Shown in pieces: positions 11,403 to 32,241 of a stretch of DNA of 43,897 nt. The position numbers were made by a program, and so were the translations under genes. Where the stretch lies: assembly GCA_026329315.1 (NCBI GenBank), contig GCA_026329315.1_4342.1. The stretch is one strand, 5' to 3'. The notes below the pieces were generated by a model that was not told the DNA's origin, did no database searches, and was given only the letters and a program-made list of their open reading frames with translations. The stretch is from a phage. Every line of letters starts with the position of its first letter. Position 1 is the stretch's first letter.

Positions 11403-11431
11403 TTGCACACCCCAATATAATAGCGTACTAT
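11403..11431 (+). promoter_or_regulatory. sigma70-like promoter TTGCAC-N17-TACTAT with embedded palindrome ATAGCGTACTAT
   Basis: Member of conserved class-2 motif TTGCACACCCCAATATAATAG-N-GTACTATTCA; 42 nt upstream of cassette start. Confidence 0.5.
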
Positions 11432-11473
11432 TCACTTACACCAACGATGTTATCTCAAATCAGGAGTTATGTT

Positions 11474-11665
11474 ATGACCGGTATCACTATGTTCTTCTTA
11501 ATTATTTTTGTAGCCGTTTATTTTATCCCGTTTTTGGTGGCACATATGCGTAACCATAAAGCAAAGCTGGCGATATTCATGGCTAACTTATTTCTCGGGT
11601 GGATTCTGTTGCCGTGGGTATTCATTTTAATCTGGGCTTGCAACTCGAACGTGAAAGAGAAGTAG
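11474..11665 (+). CDS. small two-TM membrane protein, superinfection-immunity (Imm)-like
   Basis: AGGAG RBS; two hydrophobic helices; motif NLFLGWILLPWVFILIWA. Confidence 0.45.
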   Translation: MTGITMFFLIIFVAVYFIPFLVAHMRNHKAKLAIFMANLFLGWILLPWVFILIWACNSNVKEK

Positions 11666-11703
11666 GCTACTATAAGACAAATCCTAAACACGAGGAAGTA
11701 AGC

Positions 11704-12834
11704 ATGGCCCAGAAGAAAATAACCGACGAGCAATTACAGGAAGAATTGAACGCCGGGATGAAGAATATCGATATCGCCCGTAAATACGGAATCTCAGACC
11801 GCGTTATCCGAATCCGTAAAGCGAAGCTGGCTAAGAAAGGCGTAGGCCACGGGCGCGACGTTAGTCACCTTGTACCAGACGGTTACAAGATTAAAGGAAC
11901 GTCGTCCCTGGTGGACGAGTTCGGCAACACTAAGTTGCAATGGGTTAAGACCGACGCTGATGCCGAACGTCAGGTTGAATTGATGAAAGCCGTAATAGAG
12001 GGCATGAAGTCAGAGATTACGCCCGTTGCGCCTGTTAAACCGGCACGAGCCAAACGTGACGATAAACTACTCAATCTTTACACGGTATCTGATTTCCATC
12101 TCGGTATGTTAGCCTGGGCTGACGAGAGCGGCGACGACTGGGATATGAAAATCGCGGAGGACTTATTCTCTCGTTGGTTTGATGCTGCGTTTCAGAAAGC
12201 ACCGGATGCAGGTACGGGGGTTATTAATCTTCTTGGCGACTTAGCTCACTTCGATAGTCTTGACGCCGTTACACCGGCGAGTGGTCATGTCCTTGACGCC
12301 GACACGCGTTACCAGAAACTTGTCCGCTACATGATTCGCATGGTCCGCCGTGTTGTTGATATGGCTCTGGTTAAGCATAAAACTGTTCGCTTGCTTATAG
12401 TTCAGGGGAACCACGACGAATCCGGGATGATTTGGCTGGCGGAGATGTTCAGTACGCTGTACGACAATGAGCCGCGCGTGTTCGTCGATACGTCGCCGGA
12501 TGTTTACAAGATGGTGCAACACGGCAAAACGACGCTGTTCTTCCATCACGGGCATAAAGCACGATTCGACGCTATCGAACCGGTTATGATTGCCAAGTTC
12601 CGTAAAGCGTTCGGCGAGAGTGTTTACAGCTACGCCCACGTAGGCCATCTGCACCACCAGAAGATTGTAGAAAGCCGTAACATGATTGTTGAGCAACACC
12701 GCACCTTAGCGGCTAAAGACGCCTACGCCTCTCGCGGCGGATGGATGTCGGGCTGCAGTGCAAATGTAATTACTTATAGCGCCGAATATGGCGAGGTCGC
12801 ACGTTTAACTATTTCACCGGAGATGCTGGGATGA
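11704..12834 (+). CDS. HTH-fused calcineurin-like metallophosphoesterase
   Basis: N-terminal HTH (NIDIARKYGISDRVIRIRKAKL); phosphoesterase motifs SDFHLG, GDLAHFD, QGNHDESG, HHGH, GHLHH. Confidence 0.65.
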   Translation: MAQKKITDEQLQEELNAGMKNIDIARKYGISDRVIRIRKAKLAKKGVGHGRDVSHLVPDGYKIKGTSSLVDEFGNTKLQWVKTDADAERQVELMKAVIEGMKSEITPVAPVKPARAKRDDKLLNLYTVSDFHLGMLAWADESGDDWDMKIAEDLFSRWFDAAFQKAPDAGTGVINLLGDLAHFDSLDAVTPASGHVLDADTRYQKLVRYMIRMVRRVVDMALVKHKTVRLLIVQGNHDESGMIWLAEMFSTLYDNEPRVFVDTSPDVYKMVQHGKTTLFFHHGHKARFDAIEPVMIAKFRKAFGESVYSYAHVGHLHHQKIVESRNMIVEQHRTLAAKDAYASRGGWMSGCSANVITYSAEYGEVARLTISPEMLG

Positions 12835-13319
12835 AAGATATTGTAATTTTCGATTTAGACGGGACATTGGCCGACGGTACCCATCGCTTACACCTGTTAC
12901 CAAAAGATAACTACGGAGAAACGTGGGCGTGGAAGCCATTTAACATGGCCTGCAAAGATGACGCTCCGATATACGACAATATCCATTTGTGTAGCGTACT
13001 GTGGCATTCCGGACTTACTATAATTATCCTTACCGGGCGAAGTGATGACGCTGAGGAGGAGACTCGCGAATGGTTACGAGAGAATAACGTTAGGTTTGAC
13101 ACGCTAATCATGCGCAGCAAACACGACAACAGAAAAGACATCGTAATTAAAGAAGAGGTGTTGCGTGCTTTCGGACTGGAAAGAATCTTGTGTGCGTTCG
13201 ACGACTCTCCAGCGGTAATAAAGCATTTCCGTGACCTCGGCATAACCGCACACGCAGTTACCGAATACGACTGTAACGGGAACTCTACACACTTAAAACC
13301 ACACGGGAGCGATAAATAA
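12831..13319 (+). CDS. HAD-superfamily phosphatase (polynucleotide 3'-phosphatase / nucleotidase-like)
   Basis: DLDGTL motif at N-terminus, ILTGR and FDDS motifs; ATGA overlap with upstream gene. Confidence 0.6.
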   Translation: MKDIVIFDLDGTLADGTHRLHLLPKDNYGETWAWKPFNMACKDDAPIYDNIHLCSVLWHSGLTIIILTGRSDDAEEETREWLRENNVRFDTLIMRSKHDNRKDIVIKEEVLRAFGLERILCAFDDSPAVIKHFRDLGITAHAVTEYDCNGNSTHLKPHGSDK

Positions 13320-13874
13320 TGGCTAAGGTAATTATTCTTAATGGCCCTGCGGGTTGCGGGAAAGACACGCTTGCTATGGCGCTGGTAGAAATGGGCTTTG
13401 CGAAAGGAACTACCAGTTTCAAGAATCCAATGTTCAATATTGCTTTGGCAGCGTTAGGCCAGGATGCTTACCACGAATTTCTCGACGGCTACGACGACCG
13501 GGCGCGGAAAGAAAAACCCGAGGGTTTTTCTTAATGGGTTGTCCCGCCGCCGGTTAATGATTGCCATTTCTGAGCAATTCATTAAACCGGTATTCGGCGA
13601 TGATTATTTCGGTAAGTATCTTGCTGAAAACTTGCCTGACGGCGACGAAGTTTTTGTAGTGTCCGATGGTGGATTCGCCAGTGAAGTTGCCCCTATCGTC
13701 GCCGCGGGGCATGACGTGCGAATCGTCCGCCTCCATCGTGACGGCTATACGTTCATCTGCGATAGCCGTGGCTATCTGTACGATGTTAGTGGTGTAAAAG
13801 ATTACGACACCTACATCATACCGGGTGACGTTAAATCGAACGTTATAGACATTGCTTTAAAATTAGGTTTGTAA
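13319..13874 (+). CDS. deoxynucleoside monophosphate kinase (T4 gp1-like), interrupted by a +1 frame change at T5 run 13525-13529
   Basis: P-loop GPAGCGKDT in frame A (13319-13534); RRLM and kinase C-terminal region in frame B (to 13874). Confidence 0.55.
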
Positions 13875-13880
13875 GAAAAA

Positions 13881-13910
13881 GGCCCCGAAAGGGGCCTTAG
13901 TTTTATGCGT
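13881..13910. terminator. bidirectional rho-independent terminator (GGCCCC-GAAA-GGGGCC)
   Basis: Same stem as the 1785 and 21132 terminators; A-run upstream, TTAGTTTTAT downstream; between convergent genes. Confidence 0.65.
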
Positions 13911-15069
13911 AGGTGATACGTTGAATTACGATAGACGACTGGTACTGATTGCCGGTAGCCTGGCCTTCAATGGACTGAGTGATTGACTCAGGCCCACCAA
14001 TCTCAGGTGTAACCGCCGTAAGCTCTGCACGTTTCAAACTGAAAGACATAGCCCCGTTTACCCCTGCCAGAATAGAGTTAATCTCTACCTGCTGCTCGTT
14101 GATAAACTTCTGAATCATCGCCATGTCGTACAGCTTGCCAGAGATAGAGAATGTGTTAGCTGCGCGTCCACGTTCGACGAACGCCACGCTACTGTTACCG
14201 AGTTCGAACTGCGCGGAAGCTCCGTTGTCGTTGGTGATGGTGAGAGTATCGCAACGCAACGGCGTGGAGCCATCGAACACCGACACATCTACCGACGAGA
14301 ACGGCTCATCGGTGAACGTAACCTGAGAGAAATCAGAGCCAGACGGCGGCGCGGTAAGAATCTCCTGACTCCGGCCGATGAACGGGAAGCTGCCGGTGAC
14401 CATGGCGTTAACCGCCTGCTCTACGGTAAAGCCAGAGATTTCCACACCTTTGGTCAGCATGTACGCGTCCGGGTTACCACACTGGCCCTTGAACCACGTC
14501 AGGATGGAGAACGTCTTACACGCGTTACCGGTTTCCAGCTTGTCGCCAGTTTTTGCGTCAGTGGTTACTGTCTCTGCTGTCAGCGTGTGCTGAATACCTG
14601 CGCCCGTAACTACCAGAGCGGAAACCGCGGTCACGATAAACGGTTTTGCGTTGTCGCCGGTTAAGTCGGTGAACGCAATAAGGTCGCCAACTTCTACACC
14701 GTCAGTAATGAAGCTACCGGCAGCGCGGGTGAATGTTTTACCTGCTGGAGCGACCGTAATTTCGGCACCCGTAATCTCTACCCCATCCTGCCACGTAGAC
14801 GTCATCGCGCCAGCAAGGAAATCATCCTGACTACGGGAGCTAAGTTCGATGGCATACTCCCCGCTAACCTGCTTGTTACCGGTTCGGATGGATGTAGTTT
14901 CACGGCTGCCGTCCAGTTCGTTGGAAGTCAGTGCATCGCGGGTTACAGCGGGAACGCCGCCCGTGTTACGCAACGGCGACCATACCGGGTTAGTCGGTGT
15001 TACGCCAGGGGTAGTTTCCGCCACATAGAATTGCGCGGTATTCGCGCCCTTAAAAGGAGTTGTAGCCAT
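13903..15069 (-). CDS. major tail protein
   Basis: Large structural ORF preceding chaperone/tape-measure block; ATG at 15069 with AAGAGG RBS. Confidence 0.5.
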   Translation of the reverse strand: MATTPFKGANTAQFYVAETTPGVTPTNPVWSPLRNTGGVPAVTRDALTSNELDGSRETTSIRTGNKQVSGEYAIELSSRSQDDFLAGAMTSTWQDGVEITGAEITVAPAGKTFTRAAGSFITDGVEVGDLIAFTDLTGDNAKPFIVTAVSALVVTGAGIQHTLTAETVTTDAKTGDKLETGNACKTFSILTWFKGQCGNPDAYMLTKGVEISGFTVEQAVNAMVTGSFPFIGRSQEILTAPPSGSDFSQVTFTDEPFSSVDVSVFDGSTPLRCDTLTITNDNGASAQFELGNSSVAFVERGRAANTFSISGKLYDMAMIQKFINEQQVEINSILAGVNGAMSFSLKRAELTAVTPEIGGPESITQSIEGQATGNQYQSSIVIQRITYA

Positions 15070-15071
15070 AT

Positions 15072-15488
15072 TCACAGCCTCTTGGTGAATGCAATAAAGT
15101 TAATTGACAATGGTCGTTTGGCCCATCCGTTTTCTACAATCAGCGGCCCCAGGCTAACCGATTGAACCTCGGCGCAGATGTCGTTACGCGAAAATGCCTT
15201 ACCTGATTTAAACGCCGTGTTAAGTAAGTCTGCCATTTTATTGATTGGCGCGCTACCTTTCACCGATGCGTAGTTAATGTCTATCTGATAGACACCGGCG
15301 CGTTGTTCCGTGAAGAATAAGTCAGCCTGCTCGGTATCCGCCAGCAACATGTAACTTGCCAGATACGGCGTATCTGTTGACGTCGGCGCGTCGATGTTTT
15401 CAAGCGCTACCTTGATGCCGTTGGTGGTTCCGAAGGCTACCAGCGGCACATCAAACGCTTTTGTTAAGTCCTCAAAGTAGCCCATCAT
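15072..15488 (-). CDS. tail completion / neck protein (hypothetical structural)
   Basis: Tightly packed, overlapping stop/start in head-tail joining region. Confidence 0.35.
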   Translation of the reverse strand: MMGYFEDLTKAFDVPLVAFGTTNGIKVALENIDAPTSTDTPYLASYMLLADTEQADLFFTEQRAGVYQIDINYASVKGSAPINKMADLLNTAFKSGKAFSRNDICAEVQSVSLGPLIVENGWAKRPLSINFIAFTKRL

Positions 15489-15880
15489 CTCACCTTGCTA
15501 GCTTCTTCGTTAATGAGTTGCTGGAAGCGGGACACGTTAGTCCTGACGAATCCTTGCGGGGCCTGTTGCGACCAGCCATACTCCAGCCGTTGTGCATACG
15601 GCAGGTTATTTGTCAGCGTGAACTCATGCCAGTCGGTGGCTTTCAGCACGAAACTTGTAGCGTTTCCGGTTGCTGTGTTTCCTGATTTATCCGTAGCATC
15701 CGTAATCCCGGAAGCAGGAGTACCGCCAGATGCCATCCAGTTCATGCGAAACCGACCAGTATCTACCGGACTCGCCTTTATAATAGCGGAAAACAGCTTG
15801 ATAGACACCTGACGCATCACCTTCTCAGGGTTCTTCTTCGCCTTTTCCACGAACTTAGAGACGTCCAGCGCGAAACTCAT
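15485..15880 (-). CDS. head-tail joining protein (hypothetical structural)
   Basis: Translationally coupled ORF in structural operon. Confidence 0.35.
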   Translation of the reverse strand: MSFALDVSKFVEKAKKNPEKVMRQVSIKLFSAIIKASPVDTGRFRMNWMASGGTPASGITDATDKSGNTATGNATSFVLKATDWHEFTLTNNLPYAQRLEYGWSQQAPQGFVRTNVSRFQQLINEEASKVR

Positions 15881-16236
15881 TTTCTCACCTGAATAAAGTA
15901 GGCCACAACATCATCGTTAACCACCTTCTTCTCAATGGCTACGACGGACCATTGCTCGCCGCCGAATTGCACTTTGTCTTCCATCTTAGGAACGACGCTG
16001 TAATCGGCTTTAACAATCATGTCACCCGCCTGAATCGTCGTACCGTTCACCAGACCCGCATTAACAGGAACCGGAACGGCCTTCAACGGCAACACTTCGT
16101 CCGCATACCAGACGTACTCACCGAGAACTTCATCCCACACTTTCGAGCCAGCGCGAATCAGAGATACCGTGCTACCGAATTTGGTTAACAGGCGTGTACC
16201 TACGCCTTGCATACGTTTACTGAAAGCTGTGCTCAT
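15877..16236 (-). CDS. head-tail joining protein (hypothetical structural)
   Basis: ATG at 16236 with GGAGG RBS and ATGA overlap with upstream stop (shorter than ORF-track call). Confidence 0.35.
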   Translation of the reverse strand: MSTAFSKRMQGVGTRLLTKFGSTVSLIRAGSKVWDEVLGEYVWYADEVLPLKAVPVPVNAGLVNGTTIQAGDMIVKADYSVVPKMEDKVQFGGEQWSVVAIEKKVVNDDVVAYFIQVRK

Positions 16237-16850
16237 CAGGCGGCCTCCAGTCTCGAGATAACCAGTAGCGCGGATGGTGCTGTACCCCATGCGGTTACGG
16301 TAGCCGCTTGCGGGTATACGCCGCCGAAGTTGCTTCCGGCGCTATCCCGCATAATCTGAACGGCAAAAGTCTGGCCTGCTGTTGGGTTAATAACAACGCG
16401 AGATTCAATCGGGATTGTGGTGTCCGCGCTTACCAGTTTCGTGGCGGCTGGTGAGCCGTACTGAGCGCCGTTTACTAAAATACGTGATAGCAGGATTGAC
16501 GTTCCGCTGGCACCTGTGCGGCCTGCCTGTAACTTGATGCGAACGGCGTAGTTACCGGCGGTGTTGAATGTAACCAGCCCCGCGGCATTAATCATTACCG
16601 GGTCGGATGCACTACCCTGAGCTGCACCGAAAGTTAACTGCAATGCCGTATCTACCGCGGTAGGCGCTTGGGTTACCGTAGACGCGGCACGGAGAACTTC
16701 AACCTCTTTAACACCTGGAGTGGCGTAAATAGGTGAGTCAGCCATCTGTGTCATTACCTCGCACAACGCTGCTGGGGTAATAAGCCCGGTAGTGTTATCG
16801 GGGAGGTTTGCGCCGATAAGAGTAAACATCTCTGATTTAGTCTTCGCCAT
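16236..16850 (-). CDS. structural protein (hypothetical)
   Basis: ORF in capsid-to-tail interval, ATG start. Confidence 0.35.
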   Translation of the reverse strand: MAKTKSEMFTLIGANLPDNTTGLITPAALCEVMTQMADSPIYATPGVKEVEVLRAASTVTQAPTAVDTALQLTFGAAQGSASDPVMINAAGLVTFNTAGNYAVRIKLQAGRTGASGTSILLSRILVNGAQYGSPAATKLVSADTTIPIESRVVINPTAGQTFAVQIMRDSAGSNFGGVYPQAATVTAWGTAPSALLVISRLEAA

Positions 16851-16852
16851 TT

Positions 16853-17365
16853 TTAACCCCGGTACACATTAAATGAGAAGCCGTTGTTAAGACCACCACA
16901 CAGTAACGGGCGTAAGGCGTCGTCAGCGGCGGTAATCGCGGTTGTGTCCCCGCTGTTGCCGTTGTTGAAGTAGGTAACTGTTACCGCACCCTCTACACGC
17001 TCGGTCTGCACGGAACGTCCATCGGAGTTAGCCCGAACATCAGTGCCCGCTCCATACGTAACAGCGGCGATTACCTGCGCCCGGATTAACTGCGGTGGGA
17101 TAACATTATCAGCTACAGGGAAACCATTCAACGTTACGCCAGTGCGAGGGTACGCCAGAGACTGTTCGGCGGACACCCGACGACCGCACATCCGCGGCTC
17201 TGCAAGCCCGACATAAGTAGCACCGTTGCGCAGGGCCGCCTCTACGGCGGTATCGTCTGCGGGTAGCTCCAGACCATAATTAGCCGCTAACGCGCGGGCG
17301 TCAGCCAGACTAATGTAACTGTCAGCATTAGGTACGATTTCGCCCGTTTCCACGATTAGAGGCAT
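16853..17365 (-). CDS. head completion / connector protein (hypothetical)
   Basis: ORF in capsid-to-tail interval, ATG start. Confidence 0.35.
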   Translation of the reverse strand: MPLIVETGEIVPNADSYISLADARALAANYGLELPADDTAVEAALRNGATYVGLAEPRMCGRRVSAEQSLAYPRTGVTLNGFPVADNVIPPQLIRAQVIAAVTYGAGTDVRANSDGRSVQTERVEGAVTVTYFNNGNSGDTTAITAADDALRPLLCGGLNNGFSFNVYRG

Positions 17366-17369
17366 AAAT

Positions 17370-17548
17370 TATTCCTCTGACTTACGGCGACGACGTTTAG
17401 TACCACCGCCGTTGTTGTGCGCTTCTTCGTTATCTGGTTGCGTTGCCACAAGCTCATCCGGTTCTACAACACCGCGAACGGGCATCACCTGACCGTCAAC
17501 AACATCAACGTGGGTGTACTTTTCGCGGATTACATAATTATCTGCCAT
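17370..17548 (-). CDS. small protein with basic C-terminal tail (59 aa)
   Basis: AAGGAAAGG RBS; ends in RRRRRK; below ORF-track cutoff. Confidence 0.3.
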
Positions 17549-17584
17549 GACCTTTCCTTATTACGGCCCCGAAGGGCCGCGGTA

Positions 17585-17935
17585 TTAAGATACAGTTGCT
17601 ACGGTGCTGCTGGAGATAATATTACCATATACATCGTGGACAACCACTTTATACGTACCGGAATCGGTAGTAGCGAGCGAAGTTTTCTCGTAGGTGGCGG
17701 CGGTAGCGCCTGGGATAGCGTTGTTATCTTTGTACCACTGGTATGTGTACGGGGCCAGACCGCCAGTTACGGCTACGGTAAGAGTCATCGTCCGCCCCGT
17801 AGACTGGGTAGTGGTAGCGGCAAGTGCGGTAGAAAAAGATGCGGGCGAGATATTCGCCATATCGATTTCAACCTGACCATCGGCAGGAGAATCATCAGAA
17901 ACACCAGTAATACGACGTTTGATTACATCAACCAT
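17585..17935 (-). CDS. Ig-like domain protein (possible capsid decoration)
   Basis: Motif YTYQWYKD...GTYKV typical of bacterial Ig-like domains. Confidence 0.45.
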   Translation of the reverse strand: MVDVIKRRITGVSDDSPADGQVEIDMANISPASFSTALAATTTQSTGRTMTLTVAVTGGLAPYTYQWYKDNNAIPGATAATYEKTSLATTDSGTYKVVVHDVYGNIISSSTVATVS

Positions 17936-17947
17936 TTTTAAGCTCCT

Positions 17948-20545: not shown

Positions 20546-20796
20546 GTTTCTCCTTTCTCGATAAGTAAAGCCCCGCCTTAAAGCGGGGCGCTAGTCCTTA
20601 TCATTTAAACATAGAAACGGCGTAATCTCAGTAAACCAGTTACTTTTTACACAAGCAATAGAGTATGGCCCTTCCGAACGCGTCAGCGTAACTACACTCA
20701 GGACTTACGTCCCGCTCCGTTACCTGCCCGCGCCGCGGTCGCTTGTTCATACTTCACAAGCTCAGGTGGAGCTTATCATATTTTTAGTGAAAAGTC

Positions 20797-20812
20797 AACT
20801 ATTCGAATAGTT
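20797..20812. repeat. perfect 16-bp palindrome AACTATTCGAATAGTT
   Basis: Read directly; half-sites match the promoter-embedded palindrome but in everted arrangement. Confidence 0.7.
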
Positions 20813-20864: not shown

Positions 20865-20893
20865 TTGCACACCCCAATATAATAGGGTACTAT
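20865..20893 (+). promoter_or_regulatory. sigma70-like promoter TTGCAC-N17-TACTAT with palindrome ATAGGGTACTAT
   Basis: Near-identical to the 11403 promoter; precedes + strand gene at 20921. Confidence 0.5.
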
Positions 20894-20920
20894 TCAGTTA
20901 ACTTAAGCAGGAGGTGAAAA

Positions 20921-21124
20921 ATGTATGCAATTTGCGAAGTAGTTCAAGAGTTCGATGAAGAGTTCGACGGTGACTTGTGCCGTGTTAAAAAGGTTCTGCA
21001 GGTTTTCCCTGACGCAATGTCTGCTTACAAGGCATTAGATGTATTTGAACCTGGAAGATACGGGGATTATGACACTGTTCTGAGGGTCGTCCACGAGCAG
21101 GATTTAAACACAAGATTCCGTTGA
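20921..21124 (+). CDS. small acidic protein (67 aa), opposite-strand moron
   Basis: AGGAGG RBS, own promoter and terminator, inserted between head genes. Confidence 0.55.
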   Translation: MYAICEVVQEFDEEFDGDLCRVKKVLQVFPDAMSAYKALDVFEPGRYGDYDTVLRVVHEQDLNTRFR

Positions 21125-21131
21125 AAACTAA

Positions 21132-21155
21132 GGCCCCTTAATGGGGCCTTTTATC
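21132..21155. terminator. bidirectional rho-independent terminator (GGCCCC-TTAAT-GGGGCC)
   Basis: GC stem followed by TTTTATC on + strand and TTAGTTTTC on - strand. Confidence 0.6.
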
Positions 21156-21615: not shown

Positions 21616-22691
21616 TATTCCCCTTTCAGATAATCAGCAACACGTTTATCGAGTTCCGCCATCTGCTTAAGCGTGAGCGGATTCCCGAAACCATCTACAG
21701 ATATTACGCGAAACTCTTCCGGCGATATACCGCTGTTACGGAAAATCTTACCTCGCACCGGGCCGAGGGCCTGGTCCTGAAACCACGCCGGTTGTTGTTT
21801 AAGGAACTCGTAGTAAGTGGTGTCTGCGCTTACCTGAGTACCGCCGTCCGCACCCTTAGCCGCACGTTTTGCGCCTTTATCAAGGAAGTCGAACTCTGAA
21901 CTGATTACCGGTGCAGTGGTACTTCGGCAATTAGGATGGGCTGGTGGCATCGGACCTTTACCGATTTCCCACGTCATTCCGTCTCTGGCCCTGCAAATCG
22001 TGCTGGTACGGCTGTCCAAAGTTGACACCCACTCATATTTCTCGATGATGTCGTCGTTCTGGCGGTACGTCTCGTTACGGGCCTCGTTGGATACGTGGGA
22101 CAGCGCGGTGCGGATTACCGTAGTCGCGTTACGTTCTGAGATGTCGGCTAGTCCACCAGCGCCAACAACATTCTTAACAATCTGCCGTGTGGTTTGACCT
22201 TGCACAAAGCCCATCTTAACTCCAGTTACAAGACGTGCTACTTCCGTTTCGCCCCATCCAGACATCAGCTTGGTGAAATCAACGGGCTTGTCGCTCAATG
22301 ATAATGGTTGAAACTCGGCAGCGGCCCATACCTGCTCAGCGGTAGGCGTAACAAATTCCGCGTCTACGTTGGCGGTCAGTGTCTTTACGTTCCACTCAGC
22401 CTCATACGCCGCCAGTTCCTTAAGGTCTTCTGTCAGCTTTGTCTGCCAGTCGCCCGTAAGCCCCACCAGTGCTTCTTCAAGGTCGCGTAACAGTTTATTC
22501 AGTCGCGCGGTGCTACGCCCGTCGTCACCGAATAACAGCACCTGCCGTTTTATTTCGTCCCGCATCTCCTGAATGAACGGTGCTAGGTCTTTCACTTCAC
22601 CAGATGCGGTGCGTTGCAGCCATATCTGATGGCTGATTAGGGATGTAAGTAAGCTCATAGATAAACCCTGTGGCGCTAAAGTTAATAGCAT
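21615..22691 (-). CDS. head morphogenesis protein (Mu F / SPP1 gp7-like)
   Basis: 358 aa ORF directly downstream of portal gene. Confidence 0.45.
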   Translation of the reverse strand: MLLTLAPQGLSMSLLTSLISHQIWLQRTASGEVKDLAPFIQEMRDEIKRQVLLFGDDGRSTARLNKLLRDLEEALVGLTGDWQTKLTEDLKELAAYEAEWNVKTLTANVDAEFVTPTAEQVWAAAEFQPLSLSDKPVDFTKLMSGWGETEVARLVTGVKMGFVQGQTTRQIVKNVVGAGGLADISERNATTVIRTALSHVSNEARNETYRQNDDIIEKYEWVSTLDSRTSTICRARDGMTWEIGKGPMPPAHPNCRSTTAPVISSEFDFLDKGAKRAAKGADGGTQVSADTTYYEFLKQQPAWFQDQALGPVRGKIFRNSGISPEEFRVISVDGFGNPLTLKQMAELDKRVADYLKGE

Positions 22692-22727
22692 ACTATAAGA
22701 AAGCCCCTTTCGGGGCTATAGGTGAAC

Positions 22728-26057: not shown

Positions 26058-26087
26058 ATTATATAAGGGGATTGGGCGGGATGTACA
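26058..26087 (-). promoter_or_regulatory. candidate promoter TGTACA-N18-TATAAT upstream of terminase small subunit
   Basis: Read on - strand; a 7-bp inverted repeat AGACGCG/CGCGTCT lies just downstream at 26034-26052. Confidence 0.3.
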
Positions 26088-26092
26088 GAAAA

Positions 26093-26108
26093 GCCCTCCG
26101 TAGAGGGC
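26093..26108 (-). terminator. candidate rho-independent terminator (GCCCTC-CGTA-GAGGGC)
   Basis: GC stem followed by short T-run on - strand. Confidence 0.35.
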
Positions 26109-26211
26109 TTGTATCAGTTGTATAGGCCGTGTCGTTGCGCTCTTTTACCGTCGCCGCCGTAATGGTCGTTGGCTACGGGAATGGCCCAGGCGTTAGGGAT
26201 GATTAGTAGTC

Positions 26212-26394
26212 TCATTTGAAAAACCACAAAAGGATGCCTGCCACGCCTGATACACCCATGCCTAAAAACATAGGCCACCACAGGTAACGAGGGAGACTGT
26301 TAAACAGAGTCGGTTGTTTTATCAGCACACCGAGAAAGGCCAGCCAAAACACCAGGTCACCAGCAACATTCGTAGCCCTCAAAATCTCAATCAT
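26212..26394 (-). CDS. small two-TM membrane protein
   Basis: ATG start; two hydrophobic segments. Confidence 0.4.
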   Translation of the reverse strand: MIEILRATNVAGDLVFWLAFLGVLIKQPTLFNSLPRYLWWPMFLGMGVSGVAGILLWFFK

Positions 26395-26627
26395 TCCCCA
26401 CTCTCCCCTTTAGCAATGCGTTGCTCAGTTTTAGTGATACCTCGGCGCGTGAATAACACCGGGCTTGTCTTAACATGTGTCATCAGACGATTGTTATAAA
26501 TTACGTGGCGCTCGCAATCAACGTCTTTGCTGTACTTCGCAATCGTCATTTCGTTGATGCCGGTTTGCCGGCATGTCTCGGCCATCGTGCCGAATTCTTT
26601 AATCAGGTTCGGAATGCTGGTAATCAT
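26391..26627 (-). CDS. small HTH-like protein
   Basis: ATG at 26627 overlapping upstream stop; segment TMAETCRQTGINEMTIAKY resembles HTH. Confidence 0.35.
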   Translation of the reverse strand: MITSIPNLIKEFGTMAETCRQTGINEMTIAKYSKDVDCERHVIYNNRLMTHVKTSPVLFTRRGITKTEQRIAKGESGE

Positions 26628-26794
26628 CCTAAAAAATTCCTCGTTGTCCACATCGCATTCGGATATTTGTTATCGCGGTCCTGCACTACGGCAATCATGT
26701 TACCGCGTTGCACCAGGCAGAAATGCCGTTGTTGCTCGCCGTTGTAGCGACGCCAGATTGCTTCTTCGATTGCCGCGTTAATGTCACTGAACAT
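26624..26794 (-). CDS. small protein (56 aa, below ORF-track cutoff)
   Basis: ATGA overlap with downstream gene start. Confidence 0.3.
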   Translation of the reverse strand: MFSDINAAIEEAIWRRYNGEQQRHFCLVQRGNMIAVVQDRDNKYPNAMWTTRNFLG

Positions 26795-26881
26795 TAGTAT
26801 TTACCCCACAGAAACCCAACCAACAGCCCAATGAAGTAACTAAGACCCACCAGACCGATAACCACCTCGAGACTCATACTC

Positions 26882-27067
26882 TCACCCCGCTATCTCATCA
26901 CCAAGCCACGCCGTTTCTCGAATATCGCCAACCACACAAGCGGCGTGCTCACGGCTAATTGCAAAAATGTAGAAGCTAAACTTCTTCCCGTCGGCGTCGA
27001 TGTGGTAAACCGAGTATGGCTTCCACAGGACGCCATCGATAACTACTGGTTCAGGCGCTTTAGTCAT
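26882..27067 (-). CDS. hypothetical small protein
   Basis: ORF in run of translationally coupled small genes. Confidence 0.35.
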   Translation of the reverse strand: MTKAPEPVVIDGVLWKPYSVYHIDADGKKFSFYIFAISREHAACVVGDIRETAWLGDEIAG

Positions 27068-27356
27068 AGTCGTACACCATCCAGTTATCGAACAGCGGGA
27101 TAGATACCGCGGGGCCGTCGAACGCTAATTCTTCTTCGGTAGCGTAGTAACTTAGTGTCTGCGAACCTTCCTCGTCAAGGAACACTCCCGCGTATGCGCT
27201 GGGTTCCTGCTTCATAACGCCGAGGAGTATACGGAACGCCTCCAGCTGAAACTCACCGTTAATCGACAGTTGCCCGCCTAACGTCTGTTTCTCCGACTCA
27301 AGCACCAGAATACGGCGCTCGAGAGATGCGATTGTGATTTTAGGCATTGGTGTCAC
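27060..27356 (-). CDS. hypothetical small protein
   Basis: ORF in coupled small-gene run. Confidence 0.35.
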   Translation of the reverse strand: MTPMPKITIASLERRILVLESEKQTLGGQLSINGEFQLEAFRILLGVMKQEPSAYAGVFLDEEGSQTLSYYATEEELAFDGPAVSIPLFDNWMVYDYD

Positions 27357-27525
27357 CTTTGTTCAGGTTGAAGCGGTTAATCAGTTCACGGCGCGTCTCG
27401 TAAAGCGACTCGACCATTTGCTCGGCTACCGCGATTTTAGTATTCAGGACGCGCATCACGTGTCCGATGTCTACGCCGCTGTTAACGACCTCAACCATCA
27501 TCTTTTCGTATTCACGGTCGGTCAT
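27340..27525 (-). CDS. hypothetical small protein
   Basis: ATG start; coupled to upstream 52-aa ORF. Confidence 0.35.
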   Translation of the reverse strand: MTDREYEKMMVEVVNSGVDIGHVMRVLNTKIAVAEQMVESLYETRRELINRFNLNKGDTNA

Positions 27526-27680
27526 TCTTTACGCTCTCCCCACATGCGATTGAGATACTTGTTCTTGTCCGGCCCTGGGAAACTGTTACGTTTCATCAGT
27601 TCCTCGCGTGTCGGGAACGGGGTGTGATTGACTTTACGGCCTACTCGTAACGGCTGGCTTACTGGGCCTTGTTCGCTCAT
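27522..27680 (-). CDS. hypothetical small protein (52 aa, below cutoff)
   Basis: AGGAGAGAAGAA RBS; stop overlaps next ATG. Confidence 0.3.
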   Translation of the reverse strand: MSEQGPVSQPLRVGRKVNHTPFPTREELMKRNSFPGPDKNKYLNRMWGERKE

Positions 27681-27826
27681 TTCTTCTCTCCTGCATAAGC
27701 TGCTTTCAGTGCCTGCATCGCGGCGGCCCAGAACGCGTCGGCCGGGATATTACCGCTAAGGTTACCAACGGCGATGCGTGCCATCAGTTGCGCGTCTTCG
27801 AATGCATCGATATCTGTGATTTTCAT
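27677..27826 (-). CDS. hypothetical small protein (49 aa, below cutoff)
   Basis: Stop overlaps next ATG (GAAATGA). Confidence 0.25.
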
Positions 27827-27934
27827 TTCCCAAAAACCCCTTTAGTTTTCAGATTATTGCGATAGAACTGCATCACATGTTCATTATGGAAGTTACTCAT
27901 CTTCTCTACTCCGTTCTCGTTGTCGATGAAGTAA

Positions 27935-27963
27935 ATATAATAGGGTCGAGGATAATAGTCAAC
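27935..27963 (-). promoter_or_regulatory. candidate sigma70 promoter TTGACT-N17-TATATT
   Basis: Read on - strand immediately downstream of the 27994 terminator. Confidence 0.4.
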
Positions 27964-27985
27964 TAGTCATCACAGAAAATAGATA

Positions 27986-28014
27986 AAAAAATCCCGGCTG
28001 GGTCAGGGCCGGGA
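27986..28014 (-). terminator. rho-independent terminator (CCCGGC ... GCCGGG + T7)
   Basis: GC stem followed by seven T on - strand. Confidence 0.55.
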
Positions 28015-28194
28015 GAAACAGAGAGCAGAGGGATGATACAGGAGGTTGGTGGAGCCAGTATGATGCTGCCGTTGTTGGGTGTCAACAGAGATTTCCGGCT
28101 CGCGTTACCGCACATCGGCTCGACCTTGCCACAGGTCCGCGCGGGTGATGATACCCGGAATGCCCGCAATGTTGTTTATCTTCTGTTGACGAAA

Positions 28195-28219
28195 TAAAAC
28201 CCGGATTCGCGGTCCGGGT
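28195..28219 (-). terminator. rho-independent terminator after endolysin (ACCCGGA-N7-TCCGGGT)
   Basis: Stem followed by TTTTAT on - strand, 60 nt after endolysin stop. Confidence 0.5.
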
Positions 28220-28282
28220 TTCAGGGCGGTGCAAGCACAAGCAGCGTAGACATATGTTACTAAACGCCTTCGTATTCGTCCA

Positions 28283-28786
28283 TCATTTTACTGCCCTCCC
28301 GATAGCCTCAGCTTCTTGCCACGGTTTACCGTCGAACAACGCCAGACGACCAGCAACACGGCGGCGGAGGCCCAGCACAGGCCCGAGTTTACCTGTTCTC
28401 GGGTTGCGCTGGTTGATGAACTGACCCATCTTGTGCCGCAAGGTAGGGGTGTCCCCCTGCCGTAGCGCCTTACCGGTTCCGGTATTAGCGGCAATGACAC
28501 CCGTCCCCGCGTTAAACACCAGGTCAACAACAGCATCAAACTGAGCCTGGGTTAGTGATGGGTGTGCCACCTCGTCAACCGCTTTCACGGCCCACTGCAT
28601 ATCACGGTTCAGCAGCAGTAACCCCTGGCCCTCGGTAATCTTCTGGCCTTCGTACACATCTGGCCCGGTATGGCCCCAACCTATGGTCCAGTACTTCTCG
28701 TTCTTTGTTGCTTTGTAAGCAGTTCCGCGAAACTTCTCCCACGCTTTCTTGAACTGCAACCCATTATCTGAAATATTTCGAGACAC
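28283..28786 (-). CDS. endolysin (phage lysozyme, GH24-like)
   Basis: Motif YWTIGWGHTG and E...D...T lysozyme pattern; GTG start at 28786 with GGAGGG RBS (track start 28837 is alternative). Confidence 0.65.
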   Translation of the reverse strand: MSRNISDNGLQFKKAWEKFRGTAYKATKNEKYWTIGWGHTGPDVYEGQKITEGQGLLLLNRDMQWAVKAVDEVAHPSLTQAQFDAVVDLVFNAGTGVIAANTGTGKALRQGDTPTLRHKMGQFINQRNPRTGKLGPVLGLRRRVAGRLALFDGKPWQEAEAIGRAVK

Positions 28787-29036
28787 GCTTATGCCCTCCG
28801 TACGACAGCCACGCCTGACGAATCTGACGCAGCGCAACTAAAGTGATTAATGTCTCAGGTAGCGTAGGTGACATGCTGCCCTGTAACAGGTGGATACATC
28901 CGGCGGCGCAGACAATAGCAGTCAGAATATAAAGCACACGCCCGAACAGGCCATCATCTACGCTGGGGTGGTATACGTTAAACAGCGATGTGCTCCCGAT
29001 TGCGAGCATACCACCAAACCAGAATAACTCATTCAT
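28764..29036 (-). CDS. holin-like / antiholin-like two-TM membrane protein
   Basis: ATG at 29036 with GGAGGT RBS, overlaps holin 3' end; two hydrophobic helices. Confidence 0.4.
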   Translation of the reverse strand: MNELFWFGGMLAIGSTSLFNVYHPSVDDGLFGRVLYILTAIVCAAGCIHLLQGSMSPTLPETLITLVALRQIRQAWLSYGGHKRVSKYFR

Positions 29037-29337
29037 TACCACCTCCGCAACGTGCGATGTATTCTCCGGCGACAATGCCAGAGAGACGGGAATAAATTGG
29101 CATCCAGAGAATAGCAATGATGAATCCAAGGCCCGCTATTTCGCGTTCACCTGCGATACCGAACCATTGAGCGGCGAGAGGCGCACCGAATACGGCGCAC
29201 GCAAAGCCAGTGGCGAGAAAACAGAGAGCATCGACAGGGCCGGTAATAGTGGCTTTGTGTTGCCGTAAGCCTATTACCCCACCAGCTAATGCGGCAGCGA
29301 GAAGCCACCCCGTCGCTGTTTCAGTAAATTTATCCAA
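29029..29337 (-). CDS. holin (three predicted TM helices)
   Basis: 102 aa, three hydrophobic segments; TTG start with GGAGGA RBS lying inside a 7-bp stem hairpin. Confidence 0.5.
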   Translation of the reverse strand: MDKFTETATGWLLAAALAGGVIGLRQHKATITGPVDALCFLATGFACAVFGAPLAAQWFGIAGEREIAGLGFIIAILWMPIYSRLSGIVAGEYIARCGGGNE

Positions 29338-29704
29338 GATGAATCCTCCAGGTGCGTATTAAGTATGCAGTAACTGGAGGATAGCACGGTTATGAATTAT
29401 CTTAATAACGGTTTATTTATGACGCCAGATGTATTGTCGTCTCTGCGGTTTAGTCGGAATATCATCGTATCCGAGCGATTTCCAGTAATTAAATAACCGA
29501 TTAGCGATTGCCGCGCGTTCCTGTGTTTTAAACTCACCCAGATTCACGGCCTTCCGTTCTGGAATCCACAGGCGCGGATAGCTTTACGCCGTTCTTGTAT
29601 CTCTGGGTACAGCACGTTACGGCGACGCTTGTGTATACGTGTCTTCGCTCTCGGTGACAGCGGCGCAAGGCCGCTTCGTTTCAGGATGTCAGTTGCTAAC
29701 GACA

Positions 29705-29893
29705 TCACTCCACCCCCTCCACATGTGTAACCGACCCACAGTTCGCGCACTCGACATAATCAGGGTACTGGTCTTTGTATTTCTGTAACTCAGCTTCAAG
29801 TTTCGCGTAATCTTCGTAAAGCACTAACACGCCCTCAACATCAGGAGTAAACCCGAATATCTGGTCGTAGGTATATCTCTGCACCATAATCAC
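29705..29893 (-). CDS. hypothetical small protein
   Basis: ORF in leftward small-gene run. Confidence 0.3.
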   Translation of the reverse strand: MIMVQRYTYDQIFGFTPDVEGVLVLYEDYAKLEAELQKYKDQYPDYVECANCGSVTHVEGVE

Positions 29894-30093
29894 TTCTCCT
29901 GTTTACCAAGTCTCTTAGGTGAGCAGATAGCGCGTGCCTCTGAATCGATGGGCTTGTCACCCTGAAACAGAAAGTGCGCGTTCTCTGCAGCACGGGCGGC
30001 CGACTGGCACGCCTCCATCGAGTAAAACGTTTCTGATGCTGCCAGGTGCATCTGGCCTGCAGACAGTACCCAGATAAAGAGGATGCTGGTCAT
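29890..30093 (-). CDS. small protein with N-terminal signal-peptide-like segment
   Basis: Hydrophobic N-terminus MTSILFIWVLSAGQMHLAAS; overlapping stop/start. Confidence 0.35.
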   Translation of the reverse strand: MTSILFIWVLSAGQMHLAASETFYSMEACQSAARAAENAHFLFQGDKPIDSEARAICSPKRLGKQEK

Positions 30094-30590
30094 TTCAGTT
30101 TAACCCCGCAATCCAGACACTTTTTAGTAAACCCCGGCGCAAAGCCCTTCCGCAAACCAACGGTATTAGTATGCTGACAATCGTTCAATTCCGCTTCTTG
30201 CTTACCGCATTTAGCGCAAACGAAGTAGTCGCCTTTTTCATCCAGAACCCAATCATGGTCACATTCTTTGCGCACCCCACATTTCTTGTACATCGCACCT
30301 TTATAGAAAACGTACCGATTGTGGGCACACTCCTGAGCATCATCTTTACGGCAACCGGATTGCTCCTGTTCGCGGATAAGTTTGTACGCCTCCGCGTCAC
30401 CCGTAGCTTTAACCAACGCCATATGCAACTCCTTAATCTGCGCCGAAGCATCTCGTAACTGATTCTTAAGTGACTGCACCTCGTGCGCCAGGTCTTCACA
30501 CTGTTGTTTGTATGGGTTGTTAATTACCTGCTGCCGTAGCTGGTCAATAAGGTACTCGAATACTTCGTTTTTGCTACTCACCATCCCCAT
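30090..30590 (-). CDS. coiled-coil plus Cys-rich (zinc-binding-like) protein
   Basis: Multiple CxxC-type pairs (CAKCG, CLDCG) after a coiled-coil N-terminus. Confidence 0.4.
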   Translation of the reverse strand: MGMVSSKNEVFEYLIDQLRQQVINNPYKQQCEDLAHEVQSLKNQLRDASAQIKELHMALVKATGDAEAYKLIREQEQSGCRKDDAQECAHNRYVFYKGAMYKKCGVRKECDHDWVLDEKGDYFVCAKCGKQEAELNDCQHTNTVGLRKGFAPGFTKKCLDCGVKLK

Positions 30591-30786
30591 CCCCTTCCTC
30601 GTTAATTAGTTCGAATTTACCGTTTGAGTGTTGTATAGCTTCTTGCCCGCAATGGTCACAGACAATAAGTTTATCGAACCCATCAAACTCATCCCCCACC
30701 ACGCAAGAAAGTACAAATTTATGGTTAGTGCATACTTCTTGCGGTGCGCCGAAAATTGCGTGAAAACATCTCGCCACTACATTCAT
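30574..30786 (-). CDS. small Cys-rich protein
   Basis: First gene after promoter at 30818-30846; CDHCG motif. Confidence 0.4.
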   Translation of the reverse strand: MNVVARCFHAIFGAPQEVCTNHKFVLSCVVGDEFDGFDKLIVCDHCGQEAIQHSNGKFELINEEGDGDGE

Positions 30787-30817
30787 CTTCTGTCTCTCCT
30801 CTCGTTTGTGTAAATGA

Positions 30818-30846
30818 ATAGTAGCCTATTCTATCCTAGTGTGCAA
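30818..30846 (-). promoter_or_regulatory. sigma70-like promoter TTGCAC-N17-TACTAT with palindrome ATAGGCTACTAT (- strand)
   Basis: Class-2 conserved motif; 32 nt upstream of gene start 30786. Confidence 0.5.
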
Positions 30847-30853
30847 GTAAATT

Positions 30854-31030
30854 TTATTGGTGTTTGGAATGCACGTGACGGCACTTTCTACATTTGTGCA
30901 CAACCTGGTCGCCTAAGTACGAGATTAACTGTACCTGCTCACTGCCGCAGTTGGTGCATTTACGGTAGCTTCGGGCCGCAGCATCTCGCTTTGCAACGAG
31001 CCCCATAAGTTTCTCTGTGAACGTTTCCAT
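30854..31030 (-). CDS. zinc-ribbon protein (58 aa, below cutoff)
   Basis: Two CxxC pairs (CTNCG, CRKC); AGGAG RBS; preferred over overlapping 30925-31158 ORF. Confidence 0.35.
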   Translation of the reverse strand: METFTEKLMGLVAKRDAAARSYRKCTNCGSEQVQLISYLGDQVVHKCRKCRHVHSKHQ

Positions 31031-31154
31031 TGTTGCATCTCCTGCAATAGTCGCTTCGATTGTTGCGTTTGGTGAAATAGAACAAAAATGAGAAAAATGA
31101 TACGCTGCTGTGTAGCAGCGTAAGTCACTCGGTAAAATCCCAAACTATTGAACA

Positions 31155-31340
31155 TCACACTTCCGGTGGCTCAGGTAAGGGCATCCAGTGGGAGATATCG
31201 CCGTGGTATAAACTCTTCGCTGGTCCCCAGTAGCCATCTGAATTAACACGCATAACCTCACAGCCAACAAAACAATCAGTTACAAGAACGTATTCATAAG
31301 GCTCCGGCATCCGCTCACTACACTTAATCCACTCGCTCAT
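31155..31340 (-). CDS. DUF551-like small phage protein
   Basis: Motif WIKCSERMPEPYEYVLV typical of DUF551. Confidence 0.45.
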   Translation of the reverse strand: MSEWIKCSERMPEPYEYVLVTDCFVGCEVMRVNSDGYWGPAKSLYHGDISHWMPLPEPPEV

Positions 31341-31498
31341 AAATCGCCTCTCTTCTCAAATGCGCCAGCCATTACATTCGCACCAGCTTTCCACGCCCGC
31401 CACGCGAGACGCGTCTTAACGTTCAGGTACTCTTTCTTTGAACCCTTGTTAACCGGCAGACCCTCGACGACGGCCCAACGTTCAAATGCTTCTCTCAT
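31338..31498 (-). CDS. hypothetical small protein (53 aa, below cutoff)
   Basis: GGAGGA RBS; stop overlaps next ATG. Confidence 0.3.
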
Positions 31499-31501
31499 AA
31501 A

Positions 31502-31705
31502 TTAGTCCTCCAGAACTTCGCACTCACTGCGTCTAATGAATAGCAGTCCATCATCAGTTTCGACTATAAACCCGTACCCATGCGCTTCCACAACCTCGAA
31601 CACATCACCGACAGCCACACCGAAATGGTAGAGCGGATGGTCGTCATAGGGTGCGGGTTGAAAACTGTTTACCTCTGTTATTCGAATCCTCATACCAACC
31701 CCCAC
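31502..31705 (-). CDS. small protein, paralog of 31754-31990
   Basis: Shared pattern I-x-I-T ... GDVFEV with neighbour. Confidence 0.4.
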   Translation of the reverse strand: MGVGMRIRITEVNSFQPAPYDDHPLYHFGVAVGDVFEVVEAHGYGFIVETDDGLLFIRRSECEVLED

Positions 31706-31753
31706 AACGCGTGCACCGCATAAACGGCGCTGACAATTAAAATGAACGGGTAA

Positions 31754-31990
31754 TTATTCACGGCAACCTCCCTCAGAGTCGTCGGCGCGAGCATCATGAT
31801 TCGATGCCGTTGTGTATATTTGCGCTTCGGCCTTAGTTACCGGGATTGTGTATCTTCCCGTCTTAATCCACCAGCCACCGTTACAGGAATCCAGTACATC
31901 GAAAACATCACCGATATTTACGCCTATGCTCTCCAGAGTATCGTTAGCCGTTTCATAGGTAACGGTGTTATCTGTAATTATGATTTGCAT
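31754..31990 (-). CDS. small protein, paralog of 31502-31705
   Basis: Shared GDVFDV motif; ATG at 31990 in ATGA overlap. Confidence 0.4.
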   Translation of the reverse strand: MQIIITDNTVTYETANDTLESIGVNIGDVFDVLDSCNGGWWIKTGRYTIPVTKAEAQIYTTASNHDARADDSEGGCRE

Positions 31991-32178
31991 CACTTCGCCC
32001 CTTTGAATTTAAAATTGTTGCCGATGAGTTTTAACTCATTAGCTTCGTAATAAACCGAAGAAGTTAATCCGTCCCGCCTGATATAACGGATGATATAAGA
32101 CCCTGGGTATACGACAGACTCTTTTCCGACAACACCAAAGCCATATGCTGTTTTAACCAACTGACCCTTCTTAAACAT
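31990..32178 (-). CDS. hypothetical small protein, first gene of leftward arm
   Basis: ATG at 32178 with GGAGTGAGGG RBS; directly downstream of promoter at 32213-32241. Confidence 0.4.
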   Translation of the reverse strand: MFKKGQLVKTAYGFGVVGKESVVYPGSYIIRYIRRDGLTSSVYYEANELKLIGNNFKFKGAK

Positions 32179-32212
32179 AACCCTCACTCCTCTGTCTCGT
32201 TTCGATAGGTGA

Positions 32213-32241
32213 ATAGTATCCTATTATGTTGGGGTGTGCAA
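32213..32241 (-). promoter_or_regulatory. sigma70-like promoter TTGCAC-N17-TACTAT with palindrome ATAGGATACTAT (- strand)
   Basis: Class-2 conserved motif at the head of the leftward arm. Confidence 0.5.

Follow-up and report, generated by a model that had tools for sequence, protein, structure and literature searches.

We analysed a 43,897-nt stretch of phage DNA (contig GCA_026329315.1_4342.1 of assembly GCA_026329315.1; hereafter the window) in which at least eight predicted promoters contain a 14-bp palindrome, AATAG-N4-CTATT. The window covers all or nearly all of the genome of a Kagunavirus (Guernseyvirinae; a K1G-like siphovirus of Escherichia coli), a phage regarded as virulent. Its nearest relatives are BEU35 and BEU33 (96.7% over 84% of an 8-kb probe), followed by phiEc3, K-01 and Bas73, and 468 related phage records were found in all, the majority of them from Salmonella Jersey-like and Escherichia phages. 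In the annotations of these relatives, a long leftward arm carries small early genes, the lysis cassette, terminase, and the head and tail genes; the rest of the genome consists of a rightward replication arm and of short opposite-strand cassettes within the structural genes.

For comparison we used 37 Kagunavirus loci from IMG/VR around a helix-turn-helix (HTH) gene described below, the whole genomes of fBC-Eco01, SE2 (JQ007353.1) and St162, and parts of Bas73 (PQ850603.1) and phiEc3. Alignments of orthologous sites held 31-38 distinct relatives per site. Throughout, promoters are predicted from their hexamers, and positions are numbered with the -10 hexamer set as -12 to -7.

Predicted promoters that share the dyad

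The original prediction listed four sites of the form TTGCAC-N17-TACTAT and a weaker fifth, and all five lie where it placed them. We agree that they form a distinct promoter class (class 2) that differs in its -35, in its -10 and in where the dyad lies, here over the -10:

11403-11431 (+): P11403, class 2, TTGCAC-N17-TACTAT; dyad AATAGCGTACTATT at 11419-11432 (-19 to -6)
20865-20893 (+): P20865, class 2; dyad AATAGGGTACTATT at 20881-20894
30846-30818 (-): P30846, class 2; dyad at 30817-30830; first gene at 30574-30786 (-)
32241-32213 (-): P32241, class 2, first promoter of the leftward arm; dyad at 32212-32225
35887-35859 (-): P35887, weak class-2 relative, promoter of the HTH gene, TTTTTC in place of TTGCAC; dyad AATATGGTACTATT at 35858-35871

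As had been claimed, two opposite-strand morons and the first leftward genes are headed by class-2 sites. The start codons follow the -10 at 25-42 nt, a placement that supports promoter function, and the orientation of each class-2 unit requires a promoter. P11403 heads moron 1, which holds an Imm-like superinfection immunity gene, an SbcD-like exonuclease, a polynucleotide kinase and dNMP-kinase pieces. Moron 2, behind P20865, is a 67-aa open reading frame (ORF; 20921-21124) with a GC-rich terminator at 21130-21150, and the gene behind P32241 has its ATG near 32177 and its end at 31990. In P30846, ACTAGGATAG replaces ACCCCAATAT in the spacer; this site has a conserved AT-rich block upstream and is without the ACCCC block. 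P35887 has no real -35, and its dyad has one arm mismatch, G to T, which changes AATAG to AATAT. Read from the sequence, it is this mismatch that creates the TG of an extended -10 (TGgTACTAT).

In class 1, the dyad lies in the spacer of promoters with different hexamers:

35893-35921 (+): P35893, class 1, TTGACA-N17-TATAGT; dyad AATAGTTCGCTATT at 35903-35916 (-25 to -12)
38702-38730 (+): P38702, class 1, ahead of the SSB/annealing protein gene; dyad at 38712-38725
42468-42496 (+): P42468, class 1, TTGACG-N17-TATAGT; dyad AATAGCGAACTATT at 42478-42491

P35893 is divergent from P35887, with 45 bp between the two dyad centres, and P42468 overlaps the 3' end of ORF 42176-42499. The two classes serve different gene sets: the rightward replication genes for class 1, and the two morons, the first leftward genes and the HTH gene for class 2.

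The dyad also occurs in a third position:

27962-27934 (-): third-position promoter, TTGACT-N17-TATATT; one-mismatch dyad ACTAG-TTGA-CTATT at 27954-27967, centred on the -35
20803-20770 (-): tentative second site of the third kind; AATAG-TTGA-CTTTT at 20790-20803, over the -35 of TTGACT-N17-(TGa)TAAGCT

The promoter at 27962-27934 follows the lysis cassette and points toward terminase and the structural genes. Its dyad is conserved in fBC-Eco01, Bas73 and L039, and takes the form AATAG-TTGA-CTAGT in SE2. The copy at 20790-20803 is called tentative because its position weight matrix (PWM) score falls under the 95% shuffle maximum. These degenerate copies at the -35, like the extended -10 of P35887 and the prior reports discussed below, go beyond the original prediction.

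Aligning the sites on their hexamers brings out the geometry. In class 2 the dyad occupies -19 to -6, and its right arm gives CTAT, positions 3-6 of TAcTAT, which accounts for the non-consensus C in this hexamer. In class 1 it occupies -25 to -12, and its last T is the first T of TATAGT. The classes differ by a 6-bp shift, from a dyad centre at -18.5 (class 1) to one at -12.5 (class 2), and the third position places the dyad at -40 to -27, over the -35 of two late-type promoters. Class-1 hexamers match the sigma-70 consensus at 10-11 of 12 positions. The class-2 pair TTGCAC/TACTAT at 17 bp matches at 7 of 12, or at 8 of 12 with TGCACA, at 16 bp, taken as the -35.

The original prediction also held that one element of about 22 bp is used in both orientations. 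Written as its reverse complement, class 1 indeed becomes CTATAATAGCGAACTATTCAC, close to class 2; the short dyad is common to both classes, and a wider resemblance over 18-22 bp (TGAATAG...CTATTAT) is real. What does not stand is an orientation of the core, which is symmetric. The wider, asymmetric resemblance may reflect shared ancestry of the cassettes plus constraints of the -10.

Other readings of these sequences were tried and rejected. On the reverse strand of class 2, TATATT or TATGTT is seen with an unusable -35 (GGTGTA at 17 bp; TTGGTG at 19 bp), and on the reverse strand of class 1 a perfect TATAAT has nothing at -35. A TATAAT embedded in class 2 was rejected as the real -10, as it lies just 7 nt past TTGCAC and the -35 it would need differs between sites. 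A hairpin or RNA role of the dyad is unlikely, judged without folding, given the 5-bp AT-rich arms and the location upstream of the predicted start.

The dyad is non-random and the class-2 element is no generic host promoter

The dyad is a real feature, strongly non-random and under selection. With up to one mismatch, AATAGNNNNCTATT has 11 matches (7 perfect, 4 with one mismatch) against 0.98 expected, and no shuffle reached 11; with up to two mismatches, TAATAGNNNACTATTCA has 10 matches against 0.17 expected. The full 32-nt class-2 consensus, with up to three mismatches, matched 11403, 20865 and 32241 and gave no match in 100 shuffles. The 30846 site matches the shorter core only, because of its altered spacer. 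Coding sequence makes up 93% of the genome, yet all of the 11 best PWM matches fall in non-coding DNA or at gene ends, and the PWM scan for extra sites gave nothing convincing inside genes and nothing in 32242-32680.

The original prediction raised the possibility of a generic host promoter. A megablast search of 5,426 complete E. coli genomes gave no match to the 56-nt class-2 region; the phage collection contains it in 137 records at 427 places, hence in several copies per genome. Absent from the E. coli genomes and multi-copy in phages, the class-2 element is therefore no generic host promoter. The 137 records comprise Escherichia, Salmonella, Raoultella, Klebsiella and Shigella phages as well as Kagunavirus-named ones, and those checked are Guernseyvirinae.

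The repeat has been reported before under another label. Seven PHIRE 'phage promoters' in fBC-Eco01, with the consensus tgAATAGTa-ccTATTat-T, were assigned to a phage-encoded RNA polymerase (OM272052; PMC9825357), and seven PHIRE promoters in Golestan were likewise attributed to a phage-encoded RNA polymerase (PMC7203180). The element is the same, the published consensus being the dyad with its flanks. In the GenBank record of fBC-Eco01, five of the seven sites are class-2 orthologues, one is the orthologue of P42468 (class 1), and one lies at the terminator beside an extra moron. Unlike the present analysis, these papers give no dyad symmetry, no differing positions and no link to the HTH gene, and our search of the Kagunavirus, Jerseyvirus and Guernseyvirinae literature yielded no paper in which the element is described as an operator or tied to that gene.

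If the earlier label were correct, the repeated 20-bp element would be a phage-specific promoter for a phage-encoded or phage-modified RNA polymerase, which would also suit the weak sigma-70 hexamers of class 2. We consider this very improbable. PHIRE finds repeats only and is no test of function, and no RNA polymerase or sigma gene is found among the 78-81 annotated genes of relatives. Moreover, class 1 is the near-consensus TTGACA-17-TATAGT, and the element occurs in both orientations and at three or four positions relative to good sigma-70 hexamers, which a polymerase site could not tolerate.

The arms are conserved and the centre is free

Among Kagunavirus orthologues, variants in the dyad arms have a frequency of 0-0.03, whereas the class-1 centre varies at 0.12-0.20, similar to the flanks; within the genus, the arms are about 10-fold more conserved than the centre. 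There are 9 distinct 4-bp centres at P42468, all between unchanged arms, 10 at P38702 and 6 at P35893. In class 2, variation of the centre is confined to the two bases outside the -10, and at P35887 the centre GGTA is kept in 36 of 38 orthologues. Upstream of the -35, the orthologues are mosaic in sequence. Seven of eight single arm substitutions in Kagunavirus orthologues (hand count) fall on the symmetric pair 2/13, a clustering that fits the expectation for a dyad-symmetric reader. The mismatch of the late-promoter copy is at position 2 in the window and at position 13 in SE2.

The same pattern extends to Jerseyvirus. At the three class-1 orthologues of SE2, the arms are identical to those of the window at 28 of 30 positions, and N4 plus centre at 6 of 24 (hand count). 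SE2 carries TAATAG-N4-CTATTA six times against 0.09 expected, at offsets of +4, +7 and +11 after the -35 and also over the -35. Because the dyad keeps its sequence while its position changes, we regard it as a module separate from the hexamers and from polymerase recognition. The sigma-70 holoenzyme is not known to make base-specific contacts at the class-1 left arm (-25 to -21). This arm is conserved yet not read by sigma-70, and therefore another reader is needed.

The promoters of St162 contain no AATAG-N4-CTATT. Instead, dyads of the type TATTA-N6-TAATA are found at the same promoter positions, 8 against 1.0 expected. SE2 and St162 are both Salmonella phages with different dyads, which argues for phage-encoded rather than host specificity.

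These data bear on whether a regulator is needed at all, since the similarity could come from recent duplication, inversion and gene conversion of a moron-borne promoter cassette together with -10 constraints. P11403 equals P20865 at 31 of 32 positions, a leader is common to both classes ((T)ACACCAAC / AAACGAGAGGAGAG), asymmetric flanks fit inheritance, and the moron scar and extra fBC-Eco01 moron described below show that cassettes move. However, drift would erase arms and centre alike, whereas the arms are kept far better than the centre both within the genus and across genera. The dyad is also kept at different positions and at promoters with unrelated flanks, and the class-1 left arm is without RNA-polymerase function. 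We judge the absence of a regulator to be about as improbable as a dedicated phage polymerase.

Common ancestry of the cassettes is a separate matter, and the asymmetric resemblance, the shared leader and the ACCCC block (missing from P30846 and SE2) point to it. The leader, (T)ACAC(C)AAACGAGAGGAGAG (TACACCAAC / AAACGAGAGGAGAG), includes the Shine-Dalgarno sequence and is found in both classes, at 30787-30812, 32188-32207 and 35922-35953; promoter and leader therefore appear to form paralogous units.

A 434-Cro-like candidate regulator

The gene that P35887 would drive encodes a small HTH protein:

35612-35827 (-): candidate regulator, HTH_3/XRE, 71 aa, between divergent P35887 and P35893

The protein matches Pfam HTH_3 (E 5.7e-12) and is the only XRE protein in the genome by Pfam. 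In a phmmer search of the PDB, its best match is Cro of phage 434, which also has 71 aa (E 1.6e-6), followed by the N-terminal domain of the 434 repressor. A single-sequence AlphaFold2 model has five helices and a predicted local distance difference test score (pLDDT) of 81, and with this model Foldseek returns 2cro as the top match (template modelling score 0.73-0.79, 38% identity). Homologues are present in about 500 phage records, with identities of 92-97% in Kagunavirus, about 51% in Jerseyvirus and 42% in St162-like phages. 434 Cro itself reads 14-bp dyads in which the outer bases are conserved and the centre is tolerant.

In Bas73 the HTH gene is present at ~9640-9860 and unannotated, and a short opposite-strand ORF is annotated there. 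We therefore rejected the idea of a Bas73 without the repressor gene. Counts of 'no repressor' in such genomes can thus be annotation artefacts; one Kagunavirus paper detected no repressor gene (PMC12919940).

Taken together, these observations make it probable, in our judgement, that the dyad is an operator in sigma-70-type promoters, most likely read by a dimer of the 71-aa 434-Cro-like repressor of the phage. Arm conservation and the 434-Cro-like gene between two sites also make a single regulator of at least eight promoters, as originally proposed, the most economical reading. The sites, their enrichment and positions, the selective conservation of the arms, and the homology and predicted fold of the protein are established directly, and from these we infer promoter activity, protein-DNA binding and repression.

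Several points weigh against assigning the operator to this protein, or against repression as its function. The recognition helix is SQSAINQ in the window and SQSLITH in SE2 despite the same arms, and that of St162 is not obviously more different; with differing helices on the same arms and no clean code, covariation of protein and site is suggestive only. The arm pattern in St162 is mixed (TATTA..TAATA, TATTA..TATTA and TAATA..TAATA). In six of eight sites the flanks are asymmetric, with TG on one side and AT on the other, which a symmetric dimer does not explain. A second small HTH protein (HTH_17, AlpA/Xis-like; 32678-32848, +) heads the helicase-primase operon, and no dyad was found in the promoter of that operon, a well-conserved TTTATT (window) or TTGATT (relatives)-N17-TATACT near 32626-32654, so that control is not genome-wide. 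The class-2 hexamers are weak (3/6 and 4/6), which leaves room for an activator. Our search of the Guernseyvirinae literature found no binding, footprint or transcription start data. The K1B4 RNA-seq time course, the only RNA-seq study found, is at gene level with coarse classes and so gives no separate timing of class 1 and class 2; it places an HTH gene, of unconfirmed identity, among four early genes (PMC12645636).

The second HTH protein also suggests that the operator could be read by HTH_17 or, alternatively, by a host factor, and the different XRE helices over identical arms in the window and SE2 would be in keeping with such a reader. We think this unlikely. The 14-bp dyad is a site of the 434 type, whereas monomeric binding or direct repeats are typical of HTH_17/Xis-type proteins. 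In addition, two operators flank the XRE gene and not the HTH_17 gene, whose operon promoter has none. A host factor fits poorly with the different dyads of the Salmonella phages SE2 and St162, and the consensus sequences of the ARG box, the Fur box, CRP and IHF do not fit the dyad by eye.

Proposed repression at three promoter positions

If the 71-aa repressor reads the operators, it would be made early and would then occlude RNA polymerase at each perfect operator, shutting down early, middle and moron transcription. It would limit its own synthesis through the weaker AATAT operator of P35887, and the late-type promoters would be under weaker control. Both the class-1 and the class-2 position of the dyad fall under the RNA polymerase footprint, and therefore repression is expected at both; the classes would differ in intrinsic strength and geometry, with the same sign of regulation.

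The original prediction instead suggested opposite outcomes depending on orientation. This we cannot support, because the conserved core is a true dyad and a bound dimer therefore cannot sense orientation; the centre is also found flipped, as TTCG at 35903 and CGAA at 42478. Opposite effects could also arise from a single regulator that represses strong class 1 and activates weak class 2, or the reverse, in an early-to-middle switch. Such a switch has a precedent in p4 of phage phi29 and would agree with the poor class-2 hexamers, with the upstream half TTGCACACCCCAA conserved at three paralogous sites, and with the different gene sets of the two classes. Nevertheless, we consider it very improbable. 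Orientation carries no information in a symmetric core, and a class-2 dimer at -19 to -6 would compete with sigma region 2, at a place not used by known activators. With its optimal length of 17 bp, the spacer is not MerR-like. Finally, the SE2 orthologue of P32241 has a good -35 (TTGACG), and P30846 is without ACCCC, so a special upstream half is not essential.

A bolder extension of the repressor model, which we regard as doubtful, is that one Cro-size repressor with graded single operators in three positions may run most transcription in a supposedly lytic genus. Perfect operators would then belong to the early, replication and moron promoters and one-mismatch operators to the repressor's own and the late-type promoters, with none at helicase-primase. 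If this is true, the graded layout could work as a one-protein timer from early to late, and the morons would be brought under phage control through carrying the operator. More speculatively, the genome could be held silenced but replicating, in a carrier state.

Relation to known systems and implications

The repeat itself was seen before; what would be new, and is the best-supported reading of these sequences, is a repressor/operator system of the 434-Cro type in a virulent phage, with an unusual layout of dispersed sites in several promoter positions. 434 Cro and the N-terminal domain of the 434 repressor are the closest solved relatives of the candidate by sequence and fold, and Cro and the candidate are both 71 aa long. 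The 434 OR and OL operators likewise are 14-bp dyads with conserved outer bases, a free centre, and overlap with core promoter elements. However, the 434 operators have ACAA/TTGT arms, whereas those of the phage here are AATAG/CTATT, and they stand in tandem (OR1-3 and OL1-3), whereas here there is a single operator per promoter and at least 8-10 sites are dispersed over the genome. In its divergence from the replication operon the HTH gene resembles cI; cro, in contrast, is transcribed from PR. This is not a lambdoid CI/Cro immunity region: each promoter has one dyad, the only XRE protein has 71 aa, and the annotations of relatives contain no CI-type partner, long repressor or integrase.

The conserved inverted repeats of the Streptomyces phage phiC31 and the gp71 operator/stoperator sites of mycobacteriophage L5 are similar in that one phage repressor has many short sites, several of them at early promoters. 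L5 sites are asymmetric, orientation-dependent and mostly inside transcription units, whereas every site here is in a core promoter; both phages are temperate, with repressors that maintain lysogeny, whereas no lysogeny module is known here. The C proteins C.AhdI and C.BclI, which are among the top structural matches, are small all-helical XRE dimers that autoregulate via dyads in their own promoters. Their paired operators switch a single operon from activation to repression, whereas here single sites are found at many promoters and outside a restriction-modification context. The units behind P11403 and P20865 match lambdoid morons, which are generally known as promoter-gene-terminator cassettes in late operons, here on the opposite strand. 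Unlike autonomous lambdoid morons, they carry the phage's own operator and so would be phage-controlled.

An operator reading would correct the label of phage-RNA-polymerase promoter in GenBank and two papers. It would give Kagunavirus and Jerseyvirus, both common in phage-therapy work, a testable regulatory map with about ten promoters, one candidate repressor and an operator hierarchy, and would provide a clear example from nature of an operator encoded jointly with -10 and extended -10 elements. BASEL calls Kagunavirus attractive for synthetic biology (PMC11990801), and promoter-operator cassettes with a 71-aa protein would be compact, orthogonal engineering parts. Lifestyle screens look for repressors (PMC9409062), and a functional one in 'strictly lytic' therapeutic phages would bear on safety assessment.

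Morons, leaders and other features

Further features lie at and around the morons:

13879-13898: bidirectional GC-rich terminator closing moron 1
22684-22717 (+): moron scar, half a class-2 promoter AATAGCATACTATA joined directly to terminator AGCCCCGAAAGGGGCT

The scar contains the eleventh copy of the dyad, at 22684, fused to the terminator, and is what remains of a lost moron. In fBC-Eco01, this junction of the portal and head-morphogenesis genes holds a complete class-2 promoter together with gene 04, an additional gene annotated as 'sliding clamp'.

The segment 11320-11384 (-), which lies between P11403 and the tail-chaperone gene start (11295, -), matches the Rfam int-alpA RNA (RF02996) with 36.6 bits (gathering threshold 35.8) and three helices aligned; the phage also encodes the AlpA/Xis-like HTH_17 protein. 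No gathering-level match to this RNA was obtained in fBC-Eco01, SE2 or St162. No ordinary minus-strand promoter is seen by this segment, and late transcription may therefore cross moron 1, by read-through or antitermination. Within moron 1, the ORFs 13319-13534 and 13464-13874 (+) overlap, and both match phrog_139 (dNMP-kinase), in consecutive parts of the profile. This dNMP-kinase gene is split by a frameshift, a sequencing error or a programmed shift.

Two other non-coding segments carry hairpins. In the 5' untranslated region of the SSB/annealing gene (38731-38775, +), a hairpin CCGGGCAGCTTCCCGG at 38744-38759 lies within the block CACTGGCCGGGCAG..CCCGGAGTAAAC, which is kept even in SE2 and St162 though its flanks diverge; the hairpin may be a translational operator or a stabilising element. 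Between the divergent arms lies a non-coding region of about 430 bp (32242-32680). The left half differs between relatives in a mosaic fashion and has either of two GC hairpins, GGGTGGGCGTTAGCCCACCC or GGGCAGGCCTTAAGCCTGCCC; the right half is highly conserved, with a hairpin TTGCCCAGGGCAA at 32416-32428 and the dyad-free HTH_17/helicase-primase promoter. The region may contain an origin or an RNA element.

Finally, in the SE2 record (JQ007353.1), positions 32123-32225, in an unannotated gap, match the Rfam ColE1 RNAI with 96 bits, which is probably plasmid or vector sequence in the assembly.

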